Position numbers and translations under genes: made by a program. A model generated the notes under the pieces. It saw only the letters and a program-made list of their open reading frames with translations, searched no databases and was not told the DNA's origin. A stretch of 64,000 bases of DNA from NCBI GenBank assembly GCA_025201805.1, contig MU619273.1, positions 165,329 to 229,328 on the forward strand. Reading direction: 5' to 3'. Position 1 is the first letter of the stretch; each line of letters opens with the position of its first letter. Below, piece by piece: positions 29,938 to 63,143 of the stretch. The DNA comes from Parasitella parasitica NRRL 2501. Lineage: Eukaryota > Fungi > Mucoromycota.

Positions 29938-31206
29938 CTACATGTAGTTGATAAGCTTGCAAGAACCTCCTTGATAAATATCAACAGTGGTGATCTTATG
30001 AGACTTGTCCAATTTCTCGTAGTTGTCCATAGCGTAAACGTAAAAGTCAACGTGTTTCCCATTAAAGCTCCAAGATTGATCATCAACCAGCAAACAGCCG
30101 TTATGTGCTTTGCTGGAACCAGGAACCTTCCAACCGACAAGAGCAGGGACAAAAATTTTAGTATTTTTCTTGATATCGTTGGAAGCGATAGTAACATAGG
30201 GACGAAGAGGAGTACCAAACGAAGTTAAACCGAAGGGATCAGAATCCTTGTCGACTAATTCGAAACACTTGTAGCCAGAGCAGCTGCAACCGCCAAGGTT
30301 GACAATCTTGGATCCAACAACACCAGTGCCTTCCATGACAAGAGCATCAGCATAATTTTCACCAACAGAGCCGATGGTTTTACCACTGCATGTTTTGACA
30401 CTGACACTCTTGCCACCTGTGTAATCACTGGGTTGAGCGATCCAGTAATAGGTGAAAGCAGACTTGGATTGTAACTTCTTGCGAACTTCCTTCTTGGAAG
30501 AGGATTTCTTGGAAGTCTTCTTGGTAGTAGTCTTTTTAGCGGCCAAACTGGAAATTTTGGAAGAGCCGCCCTTGACGCAATAAGACTTGCCAGTGTCGAG
30601 GTTATCACAGTTGGAGTGAACTTGTGAGTTTAACTTGTAGAAAGTACTCAAGCTAATACCATTCGCCTTGGCCAACTTTGCGCATGTATCAGAATCAGTA
30701 ACTAACAATATATAATATGGTCAGGACCTTGTTTTTTTGTGCATCATTTATTGTTAGTCACCTTTGTGAGTCTTAGAACATCCAGAGGCGCTATCAGATG
30801 AAGATGATGAAGAACTGGACTTCTTGACACAGTACTTTTTGCCATTGTTAAGATTAGGGCATCCGTTCTTGATTTGGGGGTTCCAATCGTAAATGTTTGA
30901 TAAAGTAACACCGTATTTCTTGGCGAGTTTGACACAGCTATCACTACCAGAAACTGTATGATATTTGGCACAATCAGTAGCACGCTTTGTTAAAACATGA
31001 GATTCTTCATCAAATTCTTCAGATAATTCAAAATTGATATCATCGGTATCATCAAGATCGAAAGCTGAAAGATAGGATTCAGAGAGTTTTGTAGCACCAT
31101 CATGAACAACAGCAATGTCGTTGGCAGCGTTCGCAGGTTGAACAAAACTTCCACTATTGAGTAAAATGAACCCAAGTGTGGCTAAAGAGAGAGATTTGAA
31201 ATACAT
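29938..31206 (-). CDS. secreted protein with two LysM domains and a C-terminal 3D/MltA-like double-psi beta-barrel domain (2 exons)
   Basis: Signal peptide, acidic propeptide ending in KR, two Cys-flanked LysM repeats (YHTVSGSDSCVKLAKKYGVTLSNIYDWNP; DTCAKLAKANGISLSTFYKLNS), then FTYYW...LRPYVTIASND...IFVP...GCLLVDDQSWSFNGKHVDFYV. Confidence 0.8.
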
Positions 31207-42965: not shown

Positions 42966-44618
42966 ATGGCAATAATCTCTACTCTTCTGTCAGGATTTTC
43001 CATCGCTGACTTTATTTATAAGGCTTTCATGGCCCTTGTCTTCTATTGGGGTTTTCATCTTATATCCCAGATGGTAAGTCGCAGAGATGTTTGCGCGCAC
43101 AGACCTGATTGCCTAATATGCTGCAATAGCTCATCCCCAAGGACCCCAATGTTGTTCCTACTGTATTTTCTTGGGTCCCAATCATGGGCAATGCGGTTGA
43201 ATTTGGAAAGTGAGTGATATATAGATATATATATATGCTGTAATTCAATTAGTTTAACAAACTATCACATTAGGGATCCCATCAAATTTCTGCAAAGCTG
43301 CCAAAAAAAGTATGGCGATGTCTTTACCTTCCAGCTTTTGAACAAAAAGGTCACTGCTTGCTTGGGCCCTGATGGCAACCAGTTTGTATTCAATGCCAAC
43401 CAAAATGTTGCTTCTGCTGCTGCTGCTTATAACCATATGACCAAGTATGTCTTTGGCGACGATATTGTATTTGACGCTCCTCACAGCGTCTTTATGGAGC
43501 AAAAGAGATTCATCAAGGGCGGTTTGAATGTCGAGACTTTCCGTAAGGATGTTCCGCTTATCATTGAAGAGTGCCACATGTTTTTTGACAAGTTTGAAAA
43601 GTCTGGTATTGTGGACTCCTACAAGATGTTTGGCTCGCTCATCATCAATACGGCCTCTCGTGCTCTTCTTGGTCTGGAAATTCGTAATGCGCTCGATGAT
43701 GGCATTGCCCAACTCTACTACGACCTGGACCAAGGTTTCCGTCCTATTAATTTTATGTTTCCCAACCTGCCCCTCCCTGCTTATCGTAAACGCGATGAAG
43801 CTCGAGGAAAATTGGCTCATCTCTATGAAAAGATTATTGAAAACAGACACGCTGATACATCTGGAATTGTCCATAATGATCTTCTCCAGGCACTCATGGA
43901 TGCTCGATACAAAGACGGCTCTGCTCTTCCTAATCATCAAATTTGTGGCATCTTGACCGCTGCTCTTTTTGGGGGCCAACATACTTCGTCGACTACTTCT
44001 GCTTGGACTATTTTGGAACTTGCCTACCGTCCCGATGTTATTAAGGCTGCTCGTCAAGAGATGATTGAAAAGCTCGGTTCTCTTCAAGTCGAATTTACCT
44101 ACGATAATTTGGAAGAATTAACATTCTTGGAAGATATTGTTAGAGAAACTCTGCGACTTCATCCTCCTATTTTCAACATGATGCGTCGTGTTGTTGCTGA
44201 TAAAATGATTTATGAAAAGTCAGGTCTTGAGATCCCTAAGGGCAATTTCCTTTGCGCTGCTCCCGGTGTCACTCAAATCGATCCTGCTTACTTTCATAAT
44301 CCCATGAAATGGGAGCCCAAACGTTGGTCTGAGAAAACTGACCCTATCCATCAGCTTGAAATAGGCGACGATGCCAACATTGACTACGGTTTCGGCGCTG
44401 TTGGCATCTCCTCCCGCAGTCCTTTCCTTCCTTTCGGTGCTGGCCGTCATCGCTGTATTGGCGAAAAGTTTGGTTATTTGCAACTGAAGGCCATTATTGG
44501 TACATTTATCAAGAGATTTGATTTCGAAGGCCTGACTGAAAATGTTCCAAAGCCTGACTATACCTCTATGGTTGTTGTTCCCAAAGACAGTAGAATCCGC
44601 TTTACTCGCAGAGACTAA
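42966..44618 (+). CDS. CYP51: sterol 14-alpha-demethylase, Mucorales F5-type paralogue (3 exons)
   Basis: AYNHMTKYVFGDDIVFDAP, MEQKRF, GGQHTS, ETLR, heme motif PFGAGRHRCIGE. Confidence 0.96.
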
Positions 44619-44733: not shown

Positions 44734-45168
44734 TCAACTGTATGATTTTGTTGTTTCTGTGAGTGTTGAAGTGTTATTAAAGATGTACAGGTGCGCGAAA
44801 TACAACCCAGTCCCGATCAAGATCAGAATCATACTGAACCGAACAAACCCATAAACTAGACGATAAATCCACTTGAAAATGCCCATAATCATACAATAGA
44901 AGATGTACAAGATAACTAGCGACAAGAATATGCCCGTGATATTGGATTCGATGATCATTTGTGAGATCATACCATACAGCTGTCGAACAAAAGCAGGCGA
45001 GCTTGACAAAATATACGAAACAGCTGTTCTTGCTGTCGCCATAACTTGCTCCGGGGCAGGCAGAGGAATATTCGATTTTTGAAGATTCACATAGCAAAAT
45101 GTGTAGGCCTCTGAGATGAGTTGAAATGCTTGCAATGTTACGTTGAAAGAGTTGTTGAAATTATCCAT
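44734..45168 (-). CDS. small two-TM membrane protein, Apq12-like
   Basis: Two C-terminal hydrophobic helices joined by a basic amphipathic linker (FKWIYRLVYGFVRF), recalled as the Apq12 pattern. Confidence 0.55.
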   Translation of the reverse strand: MDNFNNSFNVTLQAFQLISEAYTFCYVNLQKSNIPLPAPEQVMATARTAVSYILSSSPAFVRQLYGMISQMIIESNITGIFLSLVILYIFYCMIMGIFKWIYRLVYGFVRFSMILILIGTGLYFAHLYIFNNTSTLTETTKSYS

Positions 45169-45225: not shown

Positions 45226-45420
45226 GCCTGGCTTTTTTTTTTCTTTTCACGCTTTTGCCTGGCTTTTTTTTCTTTTCACGCTTTTGCCTGGCTTTTTTCT
45301 TTTCAGGATTGAAGCATGTTTGTAATTTCAAGAGAACAAGCAATTTGCCTATTTTATGCGGTACCGTATAATAAAGAAAATGCAGAGAAGTACACCAAGA
45401 CGATTGACGAAATGGAGGAT
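45226..45420 (+). repeat. left inverted-repeat arm (about 2.7 tandem copies of GCCTGGC(T)nCTTTTCACGCTTT, then 105 nt of coding sequence)
   Basis: 45316-45420 matches the reverse complement of 49864-49968 at 98/105 nt by manual alignment. Confidence 0.92.
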
Positions 45421-45546
45421 ATTACGATTTGTTACTCAGAAAATCCTAAACAACCATTTCTTTGTTCATTAAAATCAATGATTGCCAATCCATCAGAATA
45501 CAATGCAATTTTGAAGAATAACAGTCAAGAAAAAGAAGAGAGCTAA
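45316..45546 (+). CDS. 76-aa ORF starting in the left inverted repeat (MFVISREQ family)
   Basis: 33 of the first 35 residues are identical to the ORF in the right arm; differences are mostly synonymous. Confidence 0.7.
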   Translation: MFVISREQAICLFYAVPYNKENAEKYTKTIDEMEDITICYSENPKQPFLCSLKSMIANPSEYNAILKNNSQEKEES

Positions 45547-45592
45547 TAGTAATTTTAAATCGATGATAATAATACTTTATACAAAATAAAAA

Positions 45593-46299
45593 CTAGTTTT
45601 TAGACCTATGATACAAATTTTCCCGACTATCGAATTTGAATAAGGCTTTTGGCTCTATTAATTCTTCCTGGCAATTGATAACGTGAACTTGATTATCGTG
45701 AATAATGGTATCAATAATTATTTTTTGAATATTACTATTTTCACTAAAACCAAAAGTTAATTAATTGCTTTGTTTATAGTATGTTACATACCGCAGAAAC
45801 GCCTCTAAATCAGTAAAGTTGGTGGTGAGGCCCGCTGAATCTATTATAACCAAAGCTACTTTGTTTATTTTTTGAATATCTTGAAGTAGATCTGCAAAAA
45901 AGTCAGTATTATAGTAAATGAAAATTGTATGCTATTTAAGATATTAAATACCTTGTGCATTGCCATTGATACCTGATAGCTGATCAATAATCGCATTTTT
46001 TTTTTATATCTCTTTTTTTAAATGGTGTACCAGCATTACAGCTAACAGTGACATAAACCTTCTGCGCTAAGGACCTCTCTTTCAATCCAAGAACCATAGA
46101 TTGAAGGCATTTGGTCACTTTCTCGTTATCCGCAGTCGTTTTTGACTTTCTACAATAGCCAATAATAAAATATCCTTGTATTTTAAGATCCATTATATAT
46201 TGTTGGTATTGTATTGGTAGATTAACTATGTCTTCTATAAGTGCATCTACAACGCGATAATTGATAAGAAAAATAGAATTAATAATTTGTGCGTTAAAC
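45593..46299 (-). CDS. C-terminal part of a serine recombinase/resolvase-like protein (introns 45892-45951 and 45744-45791; 1-nt frameshift in the homopolymer at 45996-46005)
   Basis: FIIGYCRKS at 46143-46169 resembles the resolvase YxRxS motif. Correcting one base and splicing two GT-AG introns gives ...KRDIKKNAIIDQLSGINGNAQ|DLLQDIQKINKVALVIIDSAGLTTNFTDLEAFLR|ENSNIQKIIIDT...FDSRENLYHRSKN*. Confidence 0.6.
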
Positions 46300-46689
46300 N
46301 NNNNNNNNNNNNNNNNNNNNNNNNNNNNNNNNNNNNNNNNNNNNNNNNNNNNNNNNNNNNNNNNNNNNNNNNNNNNNNNNNNNNNNNNNNNNNNNNNNNN
46401 NNNNNNNNNNNNNNNNNNNNNNNNNNNNNNNNNNNNNNNNNNNNNNNNNNNNNNNNNNNNNNNNNNNNNNNNNNNNNNNNNNNNNNNNNNNNNNNNNNNN
46501 NNNNNNNNNNNNNNNNNNNNNNNNNNNNNNNNNNNNNNNNNNNNNNNNNNNNNNNNNNNNNNNNNNNNNNNNNNNNNNNNNNNNNNNNNNNNNNNNNNNN
46601 NNNNNNNNNNNNNNNNNNNNNNNNNNNNNNNNNNNNNNNNNNNNNNNNNNNNNNNNNNNNNNNNNNNNNNNNNNNNNNNNNNNNNNNNN
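46300..46689. other. assembly gap (390 N)
   Basis: Run of N. Confidence 1.
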
Positions 46690-49418
46690 TCGTTTGGAGA
46701 CATAGAGATCTTTTCAATTTCTTCGGAAGAAGGTTGAGGTTTTCTTTGTATGCTTGTCATCATTCCTAAATGGAGTATATTATCCAAATTTGGCTCTTTC
46801 CTTGGCATCTTATTAAGTTTGACATCCCATTTCATCAATTTCCTTCTATCGGAAACAAGTGTTGGTTCCGCTATGATGCTAGTTGAATTTACTTCCAATT
46901 CAGATTTTGTGCGTTTTGTTGATATTTCATTATTTTTGTGTTCATCGCATGAATTTAAATTGTAGGGTGGCAACTTGTTTTTAAGCGTGGGATATCCCGA
47001 TTTTGAGTTATCTGGCTCCAAGTTAGGGGTTATTTTATTTGTTATGTCTGCCGAAAGAGAATAATCGTTTTTCTTTCTCTTTGCAAAATTTAATTCGGTC
47101 GTCTTCCCCCCCTCAAAAGCATTATTTAACAAATTGCGCTCATGTGGAAACGATGGAACGGAAGAGAGAATCGAGGATTCGGATGAAATGAGATTAGACA
47201 CATGAAGAGGAAAGGTATGAAGAACTGAGGCTGAAGTATTACTGTGAAAATAATTGAATGAGGTAGTTGGACTACGAGTTGGTCTTGAAGAGGAAGAATT
47301 AGAAGTCGTGTCACGAAGAAGACGTCGATTAGAAGTCTCGGCATTATTAGCAAAAGCCTTTGTAAATATTCGCAGAAACGAGTTCAAAGTGGAATTATCG
47401 AAAATAGGACAACAAGAAGCAAAAAGAGAACGCGACGAATAGTTATCAAGAATAGTGTTATTAATAGAATTATTATCAATAAAATTACTGTTCGAATCAA
47501 TATCTACGAAGATGTTATTCCAGCTATCAAATTCAGGATCTTCTGGAGGAGGACCACGGGCAACACTAACGAGAAAATCGAATGTTACATCTATGACAGA
47601 GTCATCATCATCGTCTTCGTAAACGGAAGCAGGAGGAATGATTGGGTTAATGACTGTTGGAGCGTTGAAATTTACAACAGTTTCGGTCGGATGTTCCAAG
47701 CCATAGAAACTCAAGGCATCTTCATTGTTCATTGCATTGAGATCTGCAGCCGATTCCTCAACTATTGGTTGTAGCCATCCACCTGTTGGCTCGTTGTTGT
47801 AGGTAGAGTGATTCCAAGCATAGAAAATGTTATTGAACAATTGCGTCTCGTCTGCTTGGGGAAAAACCATTGAATTGTAGTCTTCTAACCACCATTGATC
47901 CAGATCAGAGGAAAGAAGGAACTCCTGGTATGGTGGCAAGGGCGAGTTGCTGGTAGGCGCGACTTCGGTGATGATAGGTGTAGTAGGTTCTAGATGCGTT
48001 TCCTCAATTGAAACAGTGGTGATGTCAGAGTAGGATGAAATTTGGGAGAAATTGAGAGAGTTTCGTACTAGGCTGTTTGATTCAAACCCGCTGGGGTAGT
48101 AACGTTTCAGCAAGGCTGCGACGTCTTGCGGACATCTGCGAGACAACGTACGGTAGATCGATTCAGTAACATGGAAGTACTTTTGATGACTTGTTACGAA
48201 AGTGCAGTGTCTATTAAGGAATGGGATCTGTCTACTGTCACCGAAAAGAATGATTTTTCCGTTCGGGTTCAATCGAGCGATCGCGGCATAGAGAGCACCA
48301 GCGTGAACCATGAGAGCCTCGTCAACAAGGACGTTGTTACAACCATCTGTGAACACAGCGCGACGGTGCATAAGATATGAATCGATAGTGCGGATGTTTG
48401 ATGCTAATTGTTGCTGCAAGGCTGCGTTGTCATCATCTTTAGATGAGAGTAACTGGAAAATCTCTCTGCGCGTTTCCTCTGCCGTGCTGGACGTCTCGCA
48501 AAGTACGATATCTCCGGGCTTGTAAGTGTGCACGATCTCGTACGTTTTCCCGGCGCCGGGTACACCTTCGATAAGAGTTGCGGAGAAAGGGCGGTAGAAA
48601 AACTTCGGATGTAAGTGTGACACGGCTGACGAAATACTGCGAGCGTTGAATACTTCGAAAGAACCGCAGACAAAGACGATGTCAGAACGGGGCTGGTTCT
48701 TTGGTTCGACGAACACCAGACCTTCTGGTCCCTTCTTGTCGCGCAAGGAGACACCGCGAGGCACCCCGAGCTTGACAAATCGCCCCTGCATGTCCATAGC
48801 TATAGAGTAAGTCGCAGAAGTTTTGATGTAGGATGAAGAGACGTAAGCTAACATAGAGTCGGCCACTGTTCCATCCGGGAGAAGTCCGTCGGAATTAGGT
48901 CTAGAAACTCGAAGGAAGTTCGGGTTATCTTTGCCGTTTTGGTACAGGACTAGTTTGTCCATAGGCTTCGGTTTGCCGTTGACAGTGCAATAATCAAAAA
49001 CTTGTTTAGCTTGGTTCTCGACACATTGCGCTTCGTAGGCCTTGTACTTAGCGTACTCTACCGTAGCGGCAATCGCAGCGGCAGGCAGTTTAGCACGGAA
49101 GGCAGGGTTGAGCTGTTGGCAACGCACTTCCAACTCGCATGGTAAATCGCTCGGGATGGTATCAGCGAGTTTGAAACGGTGAACCGGTGTTCCGTCGGGT
49201 TCCGTTGGAGTACGGTTGTCAAAGGTACGCCAGTCAGCAGACTGGTTGATGAGTTGGTCTTCGGCGACCACGTCCGACGACTTCCGAACGTTGGTGGATT
49301 CGGTAGCGTCGGGAAGGGACTCGTCGTCATCATCAGTAGAGGAAGTACTCTGTCCCTGATTATCTAATAAGGCCGTAGATCCGTAAAATTGATCTTGATG
49401 TTGGGCTGGAATCCTCAT
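46690..49418 (-). CDS. intronless ORF of about 909 codons (ATG 49418, runs into the gap) containing a viral SF1 RNA helicase fragment plus low-complexity extensions
   Basis: No stop codon between 49418 and the gap, per the ORF track. Confidence 0.75.
48030..49350 (-). other. endogenous viral element: tobamo/virga-like (+)ssRNA virus replicase fragment (inter-domain linker plus helicase motifs I-IV)
   Basis: TLIEGVPGAGKTYEI (48543-48566 core), IRTIDSYLM, VLVDEALMVHAG, LFGDSRQIPFLNR, TLSRRCPQDV are collinear with tobamovirus helicase motifs; visibly higher GC/CpG than the flanks; no introns. Confidence 0.92.
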
Positions 49419-49968
49419 GTTTTCTTTTAACACTTGCAGTTGTGAAATTCAACTTTTGTGTTCTACACCAATTTGTGAATTTTGAAAAGTTATCTTCTTT
49501 AAACAACGAAGTGTATTCCCAGACCTGTGATAATATTGTATTCATTGATAAAGCTTTACATTCATACAAAACAGACTCTGGATCTTCTGAAAGATAAGCT
49601 ATATCCAGGAATTGTTTTAATTGTGGAGTAGTTTCTATAAAATGAAAAAAGTCAACCAGTGGAAGATAAAAGCATTAACTGTAACAAGTACCAATTTCTA
49701 TTTTGCGATTTCCGACTTCTTGATTGCTTTGGCCAATTTCTTCATCAGTTTTTTCTTGTCGGCTTCCAGATGGGTATAAATGAATATCAAATGAGTTGGC
49801 ATAAATTATTCTTGTACAAAGAAGTCTTGGTTTTTTCTGGTTTTTTGTATAGCAGACGTCGACATCCTCCATTTCATCAATCTTCTTTGTGTACTTTTCT
49901 GCATTTTCTTTATTATATGGTATAGCATAAAATAGGCAAATTGCTTGTTCTCTTGAAATTACAAACAT
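49360..49968 (-). CDS. 2-exon MFVISREQ-family ORF starting in the right inverted repeat (intron about 49635-49691); possibly the 5' part of the resolvase-like gene
   Basis: MFVISREQ...RKIEI|ETTPQLKQFLDIAYLSEDPESVLYECK...FTNWCRTQKLNFTTASVKRKHED...YGLIR* splices in frame through GTACTT...TTATAG. Confidence 0.7.
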
Positions 49969-50004
49969 GTTTAAAGCGTGAAAAGAAAAAAAAAGCCAGG
50001 CAAA
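49864..50004 (-). repeat. right inverted-repeat arm (one copy of the GCCTGGC...CACGCTTT motif plus 105 nt of coding sequence)
   Basis: Reverse complement of the left arm. Confidence 0.92.
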
Positions 50005-50430
50005 TTTACGCGCGTCAAGAAAAAAGCTTGTTTGTGTCAATGAATCAAAAAGGTCTGTGTGACAACCTGCACTCGAGAAAACGTATGAATTCTTGTGATT
50101 TCACTTAATTTCATGTACTCGATGACTAGAGATTAAAGAATATCTATTACTGGAAGCCAAAAAAAAAAAAAAAGGGTTGCTTCTAACGAATCTAATAATT
50201 GCTAATATCTTATCAATGGTAACTTTCGCTGCAGACAAGTAAGCAAAGTAAATCTATTCATGTTGATTTGGTACCATTTATTGACATCGAAATAATATTT
50301 TATATAATGATTTATCATCATTCAAACCTAATCAAACTTCAAATGGTCCCCTGGACCCTTTTATATACATACGTCGCTACTTTCTAAATTATAGACACTG
50401 GGCTAGGCTTGACCATAATTAGCGGTTTTT

Positions 50431-61500: not shown

Positions 61501-63143
61501 TATAAGGACAGCCTGCTTGAGCTGTTCAATAAACTCACTTGCAATAATAATAACTCAAATGAAATTCGTGCAAAGATTAAAAAAAAGGTAAGTTTTAACT
61601 GTTAACTTTCTTTAGTTTCTACGTTATATTATTTGCTGTTACTATGGGAATCTATATCGATTTAAAAAATGGTATACAATGAGTTAATATTGAAAAGCAT
61701 ACTGATGCATTAACTCTTCTCCTTACGATCTTTTATTTAGAAATACACTTAAGCCTCGTATCCCAAAGTAAAGATCGATCTAATGTTTCGTGGAATATAT
61801 TCGTTTCCGAGATGCGATCATTAATGCTTTCGAGATATGATAACACGCCTATGAGTGACTATAAAGCCGTTTGGAAGCAAGCGTTTAAGAACGCTGCTAA
61901 TAGCTTATCTTATTCCATTGAATCGAACGAACAAGAAGATACATGGAATGAGGAAATCATTGATGCCCTCAAAGAAACAAAAACTTCAGAATCGAACTTT
62001 GATGAATCTTGTCATAAATTATGTACCTCGACTTCATCACTATTATACCAAAAAAAATTGTTACCAGTTGACTATTCGAACATGTCTGAAGTTTTTTCTA
62101 AACTTACAAAGAAGTGGAAATTAAAATCTGGGAGAATGGTAGAAGATGTTGTCTTTAAAGCTTCGAAAGAATTCATTGTAGAACAGTAAATACCTTGAAT
62201 TTTTATTTATATTACTTTATTTGTTTTTCAGTAACTAACACTGGTTTAGTCCTGCTCATTCTTTTATATTTAATACAAAAGATCCAGCTTGGAAAGAAGC
62301 CTTCTCACAATCTGAGTTTGATGAAATAGAGGCTGCAGGAAACATCTTCCAATTCAACAAGCCGTTCCCTTCTGACTTACAAAACATCATACTCAAACTG
62401 AATAAAAAGGTAAACTCAAAGCATGAGTTGTACTACACATCTACTTACCTTATGTTTTAAAAGTCTAACTTTAGGGACATCTATGATGCAGTTGCCACTG
62501 TTGAAGCTCACCCAATTGATAATCCAGACAAATTCTGGTTAAAGCAAAGCATTTTAAACTATGCAATGCTGTTTATAGATAATGAAGTTCTATTACCATC
62601 AGAGACGGAACAAGATTTACTTGACGATGTATTCGGTTTTATAAAAACAAGCTGTAGACTTAGTGGAACTAAAGCTTATGGGTAAGAACATTCTATTGTT
62701 TGTACTTTGTTTAAACAATTAATTTGACTTATATGCTTTAATAGCGCTAAACAAAGTCAATCATCAAGTGAATGTAAAAACTCAACAAGATCAATAGGTT
62801 CTTTATCAAAAGTTCAACGGAAGCAGTCGGCTGAAAATGCTGATTTAAGCTTTAAATATATTTCTCATGAACTTTTCTGTCTCGAGATTGGCCTCAAGGA
62901 TCATGGCCCAAACGATACCAAAGAATTGAATGAAAGTTCAATTAAAATACCATTAATGATGAAAAACTTCTATTTACATCTTATTTCTCAATATAAAATG
63001 AATCCAAATGGAATCAAAATAATGGGTATTATTATTAGTGGTAAGAAAAAGAAAATCAAAACTGGATAGTGTAAAATCAGGCAATGCTTTCATGGACAAC
63101 AAAAAAATCGTTTTTTTTAAAAAAAAAAAAAAAAAAAAAAGTC

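Follow-up and report, generated by a model that had tools for sequence, protein, structure and literature searches.

Among the closest described parallels to the locus reported here, two are from insects. Mosquito cells hold hybrids of virus and long terminal repeat (LTR) retrotransposon, and in Aedes an endogenous viral element (EVE) from cell fusing agent virus (CFAV) is flanked by LTR and gag sequences (PMC6797480, in the part available). In insect R1/TRAS long interspersed nuclear elements (LINEs), a Tobamo/virga-like superfamily 1 (SF1) helicase stands in frame with a mobile-element open reading frame (ORF), full-length, C-terminal to ORF2 and kept across lineages (available parts of PMC4686597 and PMC5563155). 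From the Mucoromycota, the available part of PMC7482067 describes endogenous virus-like RNA-dependent RNA polymerase (RdRp) genes that are old, conserved, expressed and of unplaced lineage. Here we describe a locus in the mould Parasitella parasitica NRRL 2501, where viral sequence lies within two different repeats. The stretch analysed (the window) is 64,000 nt long, and coordinates below are window positions. The locus consists of three nested layers (an outer inverted-repeat unit, an inner multi-copy repeat and a viral piece), not of one element with a helicase as its cargo.

We hold it moderately probable that this arrangement arose by nested insertion. A single piece of RNA virus with half a helicase would have come to be flanked on either side by a multi-copy repeat, likely a retroelement, when the reverse transcriptase of the latter moved from its own template to viral RNA; the hybrid would then have interrupted a gene of a two-copy, likely mobile inverted-repeat element. 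The contig evidence comes from the contig sets of four sequencing runs from four studies, which agree closely, and depth is given relative to that of the flanks. The layers are arranged as follows.

45226–45468, plus strand: outer left arm, in which three tandem units of about 30 nt that begin GCCTGGC precede the initial ~150 nt of the short gene.
45316–45546, plus strand: short MFVISREQ gene, 76 aa.
45593–46299, minus strand: 3' part of the outer long gene (GYCRKS domain), with acceptor at 46247 and stop at 45593–45595.
46300–46689, no strand: assembly gap of 390 N, which conceals the second junction between inner and outer sequence.
46690–48024, minus strand: ORF of the inner repeat, 444 aa visible and open into the gap; depth 3.7–9.4x, GC 0.39.
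48025–49343, minus strand: endogenous viral piece, an acidic linker and SF1 helicase motifs I–IV of a Martellivirales-type replicase; GC 0.50, depth 0.97–1.14x.
49344–49382, minus strand: terminus piece of the inner repeat, 39 nt, of very high copy number and taken as the inner element's end.
49383–49968, minus strand: 5' part of the outer long gene, with exon 49968–49692, a 57-nt intron (49691–49635) and an exon open to the insertion.
49813–50001, minus strand: outer right arm, ending GCCAGGC at 50001.

The three layers differ in depth and in GC (0.50 for the viral piece, against 0.39 for the inner ORF and 0.31), and the virus is joined on both sides to inner-repeat sequence. In each of the four runs a single contig of 1379 nt (47995–49373) carries the viral piece at 0.97–1.14x, without one letter differing from the window, which bears out the claim of an earlier reading, made from the sequence only, that the virus is present as DNA. 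Contigs of the inner ORF run at 3.7–9.4x in all four sets, and other copies of the inner repeat depart from the window sequence at 48024, 49344/49349 and 49382. Intron-bearing genes lie on both flanks of the locus. Independent contigs of the four runs rebuild the same piece at genome depth with repeat at both ends, and seven of 16 listed runs, from six studies, contain 0.71–0.84 of the sequence words from 46690–50300, leaving an assembly chimera or contaminating viral sequence an extremely improbable explanation, for all that an N gap lies inside the unit, repeats stand on both sides of the virus and the run types are guessed to be DNA. The nine listed runs holding none of these words are not evidence of absence, and two of them share samples with holders; no RNA run is among the listed runs that contain the words.

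The minus-strand frame that holds the viral piece is open from 49418 for 909 codons into the gap. It matches Viral_helicase1 of Pfam at E 4e-21 (aa 282–469), and the best match to a solved structure is the chain named 'Replicase large subunit' (3vkw, E 2e-13). HMMER yielded 579 relatives at E≤0.001. The best of them has 38% identity, and identity to any relative listed is at most 46%. Viral_helicase1 was present in all 35 relatives scanned, 21 of which also carry a viral methyltransferase (Vmethyltransf) or RdRP_2 domain; no reverse-transcriptase family was among the domains listed for these 35. Alignments extend upstream to aa 49–115 in three proteins of 1100–1200 aa, and those that were scanned are methyltransferase-helicase proteins.

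At the other end the homology stops within the domain: among 150 relatives, alignments cover aa 440–459 in 123, aa 460–479 in 39 and aa 480–499 in four, and the junction defined by the contigs is at aa 465. Motif patterns applied alike to the window and to the 150 relatives find motifs I–IV in the viral piece without V and VI, while in the relatives they find V in 121 and VI in 108. The earlier call of a viral helicase therefore stands for the first half of the domain only. In a quick tree built from the 60 best of these 150 relatives, the viral piece fell into no supported clade. The domains of the relatives, the position of the junction, the motifs and the tree argue together that the piece is a Martellivirales-type replicase fragment from an unsampled lineage, the source of which was likely a mycovirus infecting this mould. 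Phage and IMG/VR searches returned no relatives and Rfam no match; a metagenome locus was set aside as a chance match in a bacterial contig.

Two of the relatives combine a half helicase with other sequence. P0020 (600 aa) has a virga-like half helicase followed by a region that by eye resembles a non-LTR retrotransposon endonuclease, with no Pfam match at 1e-4, and in P0023 a half helicase is joined to an RdRP fragment. Both may be unrelated EVEs.

The viral stretch is free of stops over 1319 nt, whereas none of 2000 base shuffles was stop-free in any of three frames. It has the same sense and the same frame as the inner ORF. Such an in-frame fusion needs no selection, since for two pieces of the same sense it has a one-in-three chance, and the only start of the 909-aa fusion lies in another frame, within the second exon of the outer gene. 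Because of this start we rejected the idea that the locus is there to have a 909-aa fusion translated, and because motifs V and VI are missing we also rejected a functional helicase cargo. The outer long gene is broken in this copy, its frame reaching a first stop at 49362–49360, 20 nt into the insert. On these three grounds (missing motifs, early stop and out-of-frame start) the hybrid would be a dead fossil and not spreading cargo. It is likely recent, because the viral stretch is still stop-free and the adjoining inner ORF is about 1.3% from its other copies.

What had been taken for a low-complexity segment belongs to the inner layer, a distinct repeat present in several copies, and is that repeat's ORF. 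Compared with the high-depth contigs, the inner ORF shows 18 differences, nine synonymous, nine non-synonymous and none a stop (two further rows from a single-depth contig were excluded). The synonymous share of 9/18 stands against 22% expected, with a ratio of non-synonymous to synonymous differences (pN/pS) of 0.28 (P 0.008); the ORF is coding and under purifying selection. In all four runs the high-depth contigs extend 1.7–3.0 kb past 46690, so that either the true gap is longer than its 390 N or this inner copy is truncated. Past 48024 the other copies continue with different sequence, in which the same frame stays open for ten visible codons.

The terminus piece at 49344–49382 is present in roughly 17–90 copies by depth, varying with how overlapping contigs are counted. 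Other copies appear to continue for about 13 nt beyond 49382 to a TG start and then diverge; this start is a consensus of loose ends, with an agreement of 0.6–0.68 over three to four contigs in three runs and a single contig in the fourth. Behind the terminus we found two interiors, each in at most two contigs, and identical by eye at 21 of 25 aligned letters. TG starts are typical of LTR and Ginger elements, and a Phycomyces retroelement has short inverted ends, so that these features fit more than one class. We regard the inner repeat as probably a retroelement.

The virus takes the place of precisely what would lie from the inner terminus to the beginning of the inner ORF, in the same sense, and this replacement points to copy-choice during reverse transcription. 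Positive-strand RNA viruses have no DNA stage, so a reverse transcriptase is required. During minus-strand synthesis the enzyme would have left the RNA of the inner element near the ORF start and gone on for 1.3 kb along plus-strand RNA of the virus that was packaged with it; a short piece of the inner element's terminus would have closed the product. The hybrid would then have entered the outer element once, likely by end-joining repair, or it was trimmed later, since the terminus appears to lack about 13 nt and a duplication cannot be seen. The outer element would likely be merely the landing site.

The same nesting would result if the inner repeat were an inverted-end DNA transposon, of the Ginger kind or another, and a break in one copy of it had been repaired by end joining with viral cDNA that an unrelated reverse transcriptase supplied in trans. 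Two interiors that are related but different would fit imperfect left and right arms, the inner terminus appears short, and its TG end is common to LTR and Ginger elements. Ginger elements are also described as ubiquitous in fungi (available part of PMC5751038). On the other hand, the virus has the same sense as the repeat and replaces exactly the terminus-to-ORF stretch, as copy-choice predicts. In addition, terminus depth is more than twice that of the interior under most overlap assumptions, as expected from solo LTRs (non-autonomous copies would do likewise). We think this alternative unlikely, although it deserves to be kept in mind.

Several points weigh against capture by a retroelement and against the placement of the hybrid. 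The two interiors fit two subfamilies of one LTR but also the opposite arms of an inverted repeat that is imperfect. Position, and not a shared contig, is what assigns the 39-nt terminus and the ORF to the same element. The visible part shows neither a reverse transcriptase or integrase nor a second LTR, the rest of the inner element lying beyond the gap, and the inner ORF matched no family in word-index, Atlas, Pfam, NCBIfam and profile searches. The word-index blanks, for this ORF and for the GYCRKS exon (at the longer lengths), carry little weight, because the same search missed the viral relatives that HMMER found. Of the 150 significant alignments to viral relatives, 11 run on beyond aa 475. 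The viral contig holds 30 repeat letters past each junction, one below our bridging rule of 31 letters beyond a junction (neighbouring contigs overlap by 30 letters throughout the contig table), and among the contig pieces listed none spans 49382/49383 or the gap, so that it is the window assembly that puts the insert into this particular copy of the outer unit. Finally, the four runs are possibly one strain, one of them is perhaps the source of the window assembly, and the run type of the holders is entered as 'DNA?', which is a guess.

Turning to the outer layer, the sequence-only reading had described inverted ends that carry the same protein family, and these are clear: in a self-BLAST of the whole window, 45266–45468 matches 50025–49813 in inverted orientation over 214 nt at 81% identity (E 1e-49), and the arms with their 30-nt terminal unit are the only inverted matches in the 64 kb. 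Identity per successive 30-nt coding block falls inward from 100 to 90, 90, 67, 63 and 53%. The left boundary at 45226, where GCCTGGC begins, is as first proposed, while the right end, GCCAGGC, is at 50001 and not at 50004. On the left the terminus is made of the three tandem units (45226–45315), and on the right one more degenerate unit runs to about 50025. In the tripled left unit (plus strand) the T runs are 10, 8 and 6 long and the first seven nt form a near-palindrome; the tripling could be due to repeated end-on-end insertion or to slippage. No target-site duplication of 4–11 nt was found at ends 45226/50001, a result that is provisional without an empty site.

An insert-free form of the outer unit, as the earlier reading anticipated, is present in all four runs, as a single contig in which 41 other letters separate 46299 from 49382. 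Eight listed positions across the runs set it apart from the window, as do, in two runs, indels of 29 nt and 9 nt within the short gene, which makes it a separate copy; its depth of 1.71–1.86x in the four runs indicates about two copies of the outer unit. Without insert the unit is about 1735 nt long and filled by two paralogous genes. A JGI/IMG protein (P0003) with 85% identity to P0004 in the GYCRKS exon alignment comes from a contig of 1816 nt, near this size.

Because the insert-free contig sets the MFVISREQ and GYCRKS parts of the minus strand 41 nt apart, we read them as the 5' and 3' parts of one interrupted gene, and have given up the initial description of a separate MFVISREQ gene beside a GYCRKS gene. 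The intron-bearing nature of the GYCRKS domain, as first described, was confirmed (GT..AG introns at 45951–45892 and 45791–45744), and the 57-nt intron of the 5' part is also GT..AG. The GYCRKS exon goes out of frame at a 10-nt A run (45996–46005), which two of its four database relatives (P0004 and P0005) read through and two do not. Its nearest Atlas clusters are Mucoromycota hypothetical proteins, and it belongs to a five-member cluster at 90%.

The short plus-strand gene converges on the long gene, as had been noticed, with 46 nt between the stops. It is 89% identical to KAL0141296.1 of Mucor lusitanicus, with which it shares a 90% cluster, and 88–91% identical to two Logan proteins. These relatives terminate in the same left-arm-type sequence, so that the short convergent gene is a family feature and not a local accident. 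While the short gene has this match in Mucor lusitanicus (P0007), the two host proteins of the window that were found, out of 20 looked up, are singletons at 90%; the difference is a weak hint of horizontal transfer, or just of a related host.

The outer unit is likely a mobile inverted-repeat element. Its doubled depth is limited to the unit, both flanks being at 1x and the right-flank contig starting where the shared sequence stops, at 50001. The two-gene set is found again at 85–97% identity in other samples, and in relative P0008 the arm motif is preceded by a different upstream sequence, as read from its translation. Close relatives of both arm-linked proteins thus occur elsewhere, in line with the family that had been predicted. 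These observations speak against a static origin, in which an inverted gene duplication became present twice by a small local duplication and received the hybrid. We judge this quite improbable, even with only about two copies in this genome, arm identity down to 53–67% beyond 90 coding nt, no empty site seen and no proven catalytic domain.

Searches of the outer-element proteins against Pfam, NCBIfam, PDB and PHROGs matched no known family, and the outer exons tested matched neither an RNase H-fold DDE transposase nor another family. Compared with cut-and-paste DDE transposons, terminal inverted repeats are present and a target-site duplication is not. Convergent genes with promoters and gene starts within long arms recall the layout of MuDR; here no DDE domain or duplication was seen.

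Could the outer gene encode a serine resolvase, as was proposed? Its GYCRKS shares the spacing GY-x-R-x-S with GYVRVS of PinE, so this part of the proposal fits, and the motif lies in a predicted strand-helix-strand (single-sequence fold, predicted local distance difference test score (pLDDT) 46). The DRLGR motif is not kept; IIDSAGLTT, further on, sits where it might be. A Pin profile (PinE with 49 near-identical peptides, shallow at an effective sequence number (Neff) of 1.1) scored the read-through protein within shuffles, 177 of 1000 being equal or above. The single-sequence folds are poor (pLDDT 43 and 46), and with these models Foldseek gave nothing at E≤0.001 and VIA gave a best Z of 5.3 with no recombinase among 50 rows, neither of which excludes anything. 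A plasmid tblastn with P0004 returned matches at E 0.3–2, none annotated as a resolvase. The tests being weak, the label is neither supported nor excluded.

The earlier reading went further and had the outer element itself, as a serine-recombinase transposon, pick up viral cDNA as cargo. Occurrence of the outer unit with and without insert, the lack of a target-site duplication and the GY-x-R-x-S motif in its predicted strand-helix-strand would all suit this; however, the virus adjoins inner-repeat sequence only, is single-copy and truncated, without motifs V and VI, and came with an insert that destroys the outer gene. We therefore consider such a capture very improbable and retain the nested insertion, with the outer element as recipient.

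A bolder and rather doubtful proposal is that the outer unit represents an undescribed group of Mucorales DNA transposons that has moved between Mucorales lineages. It would be defined by an intron-bearing enzyme derived from a serine recombinase, long inverted arms with the starts of two convergent paralogous genes, near-palindromic 7-mer ends and no target duplication. With its insert it would hold the first fungal terminus-virus-ORF hybrid, a snapshot of retroelement-driven mycovirus capture that could feed host RNA interference (RNAi).

A few observations concern the neighbourhood. CYP51 (43275–44618, plus strand) ends about 600 nt from the left arm and has Phe in the B'-C loop where the yeast enzyme has Tyr, the Mucorales CYP51 F5 type linked to intrinsic resistance to short-tailed azoles (available part of PMC5698289). 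Between it and the arm lies only an Apq12-like gene (44737–45168, minus strand; Pfam E 0.002, below cut-off), whose start is separated from the left arm by 58 nt. It and the short gene stand head to head, and the insertion of the outer element may have altered its promoter. At 29941–31206 (minus strand) is a gene of several exons for a product that looks secreted, in which repeated modules with Cys are by eye similar to LysM domains, and at 61683–62189 (plus strand) an ORF that by eye resembles Mucorales repeat-type hypothetical proteins and is possibly another mobile-element remnant.

The viral piece itself is no more than one broken fossil. With both junctions legible, it is a record of the likely entry of a non-retroviral RNA virus into a fungal chromosome, by a route known mostly from insects, and at 38% identity to its best relative it points to an unsampled virus lineage of which this mould was likely a host. 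Transposon-directed RNAi is strong in Mucorales (available part of PMC11943222), which makes virus-derived small RNAs directly testable. The outer element is the larger lead, an abundant Mucoromycota protein family without a Pfam name for which this locus supplies defined ends and a further copy; should the enzyme prove to be a serine recombinase, the element would represent a new class among eukaryotic DNA transposons. In the literature covered, which leaves out most subscription papers, we found no Martellivirales insertion in Mucorales and no serine-recombinase element with inverted arms in these fungi. In the available part of a survey of fungal DNA transposons (PMC5751038) the words 'resolvase' and 'recombinase' are absent, and a Mucor genome comparison has an 'unknown' repeat class (available part of PMC7011435) in which the outer family may sit.

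Compared with described serine-recombinase elements (IS607 and Fanzor2; available parts of PMC3627910 and PMC6188088), the outer unit shares the lack of a target-site duplication and the GY-x-R-x-S motif. IS607 elements, however, have no terminal inverted repeats and carry TnpB/Fanzor, while the outer unit has inverted arms of ~200 nt, introns and two convergent paralogous genes, its recombinase fold is unproven, and there is no second gene of the TnpB/Fanzor kind in the insert-free unit and no such Pfam match. Since IS607-type elements are without inverted repeats, we do not place the outer unit in that family, and the analogy once drawn with it falls. The viral piece, with Viral_helicase1 and an upstream linker, resembles Martellivirales methyltransferase-helicase proteins, including those of virga-like and vivivirus mycoviruses (available part of PMC12282112). 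Like the Mucoromycota RdRp genes it is RNA-virus sequence in Mucoromycota DNA, but a recent, truncated helicase piece in nested repeats. Like the helicase of R1/TRAS LINEs it is in frame with a mobile-element ORF; unlike that helicase it is half a domain, upstream of the ORF and in one copy (1x against 3.7–9.4x for the inner ORF, where other copies differ), and it is not domesticated cargo. With the Aedes EVEs the window hybrid shares virus between a terminus piece and an element ORF, joined by recombination without sequence homology; here the host is a fungus and the inner element is at most a candidate LTR retrotransposon. Retroelement-linked EVEs are thus already known, and to these the window likely adds a fungal terminus-virus-ORF hybrid together with a lead to an undescribed repeat family of Mucorales.

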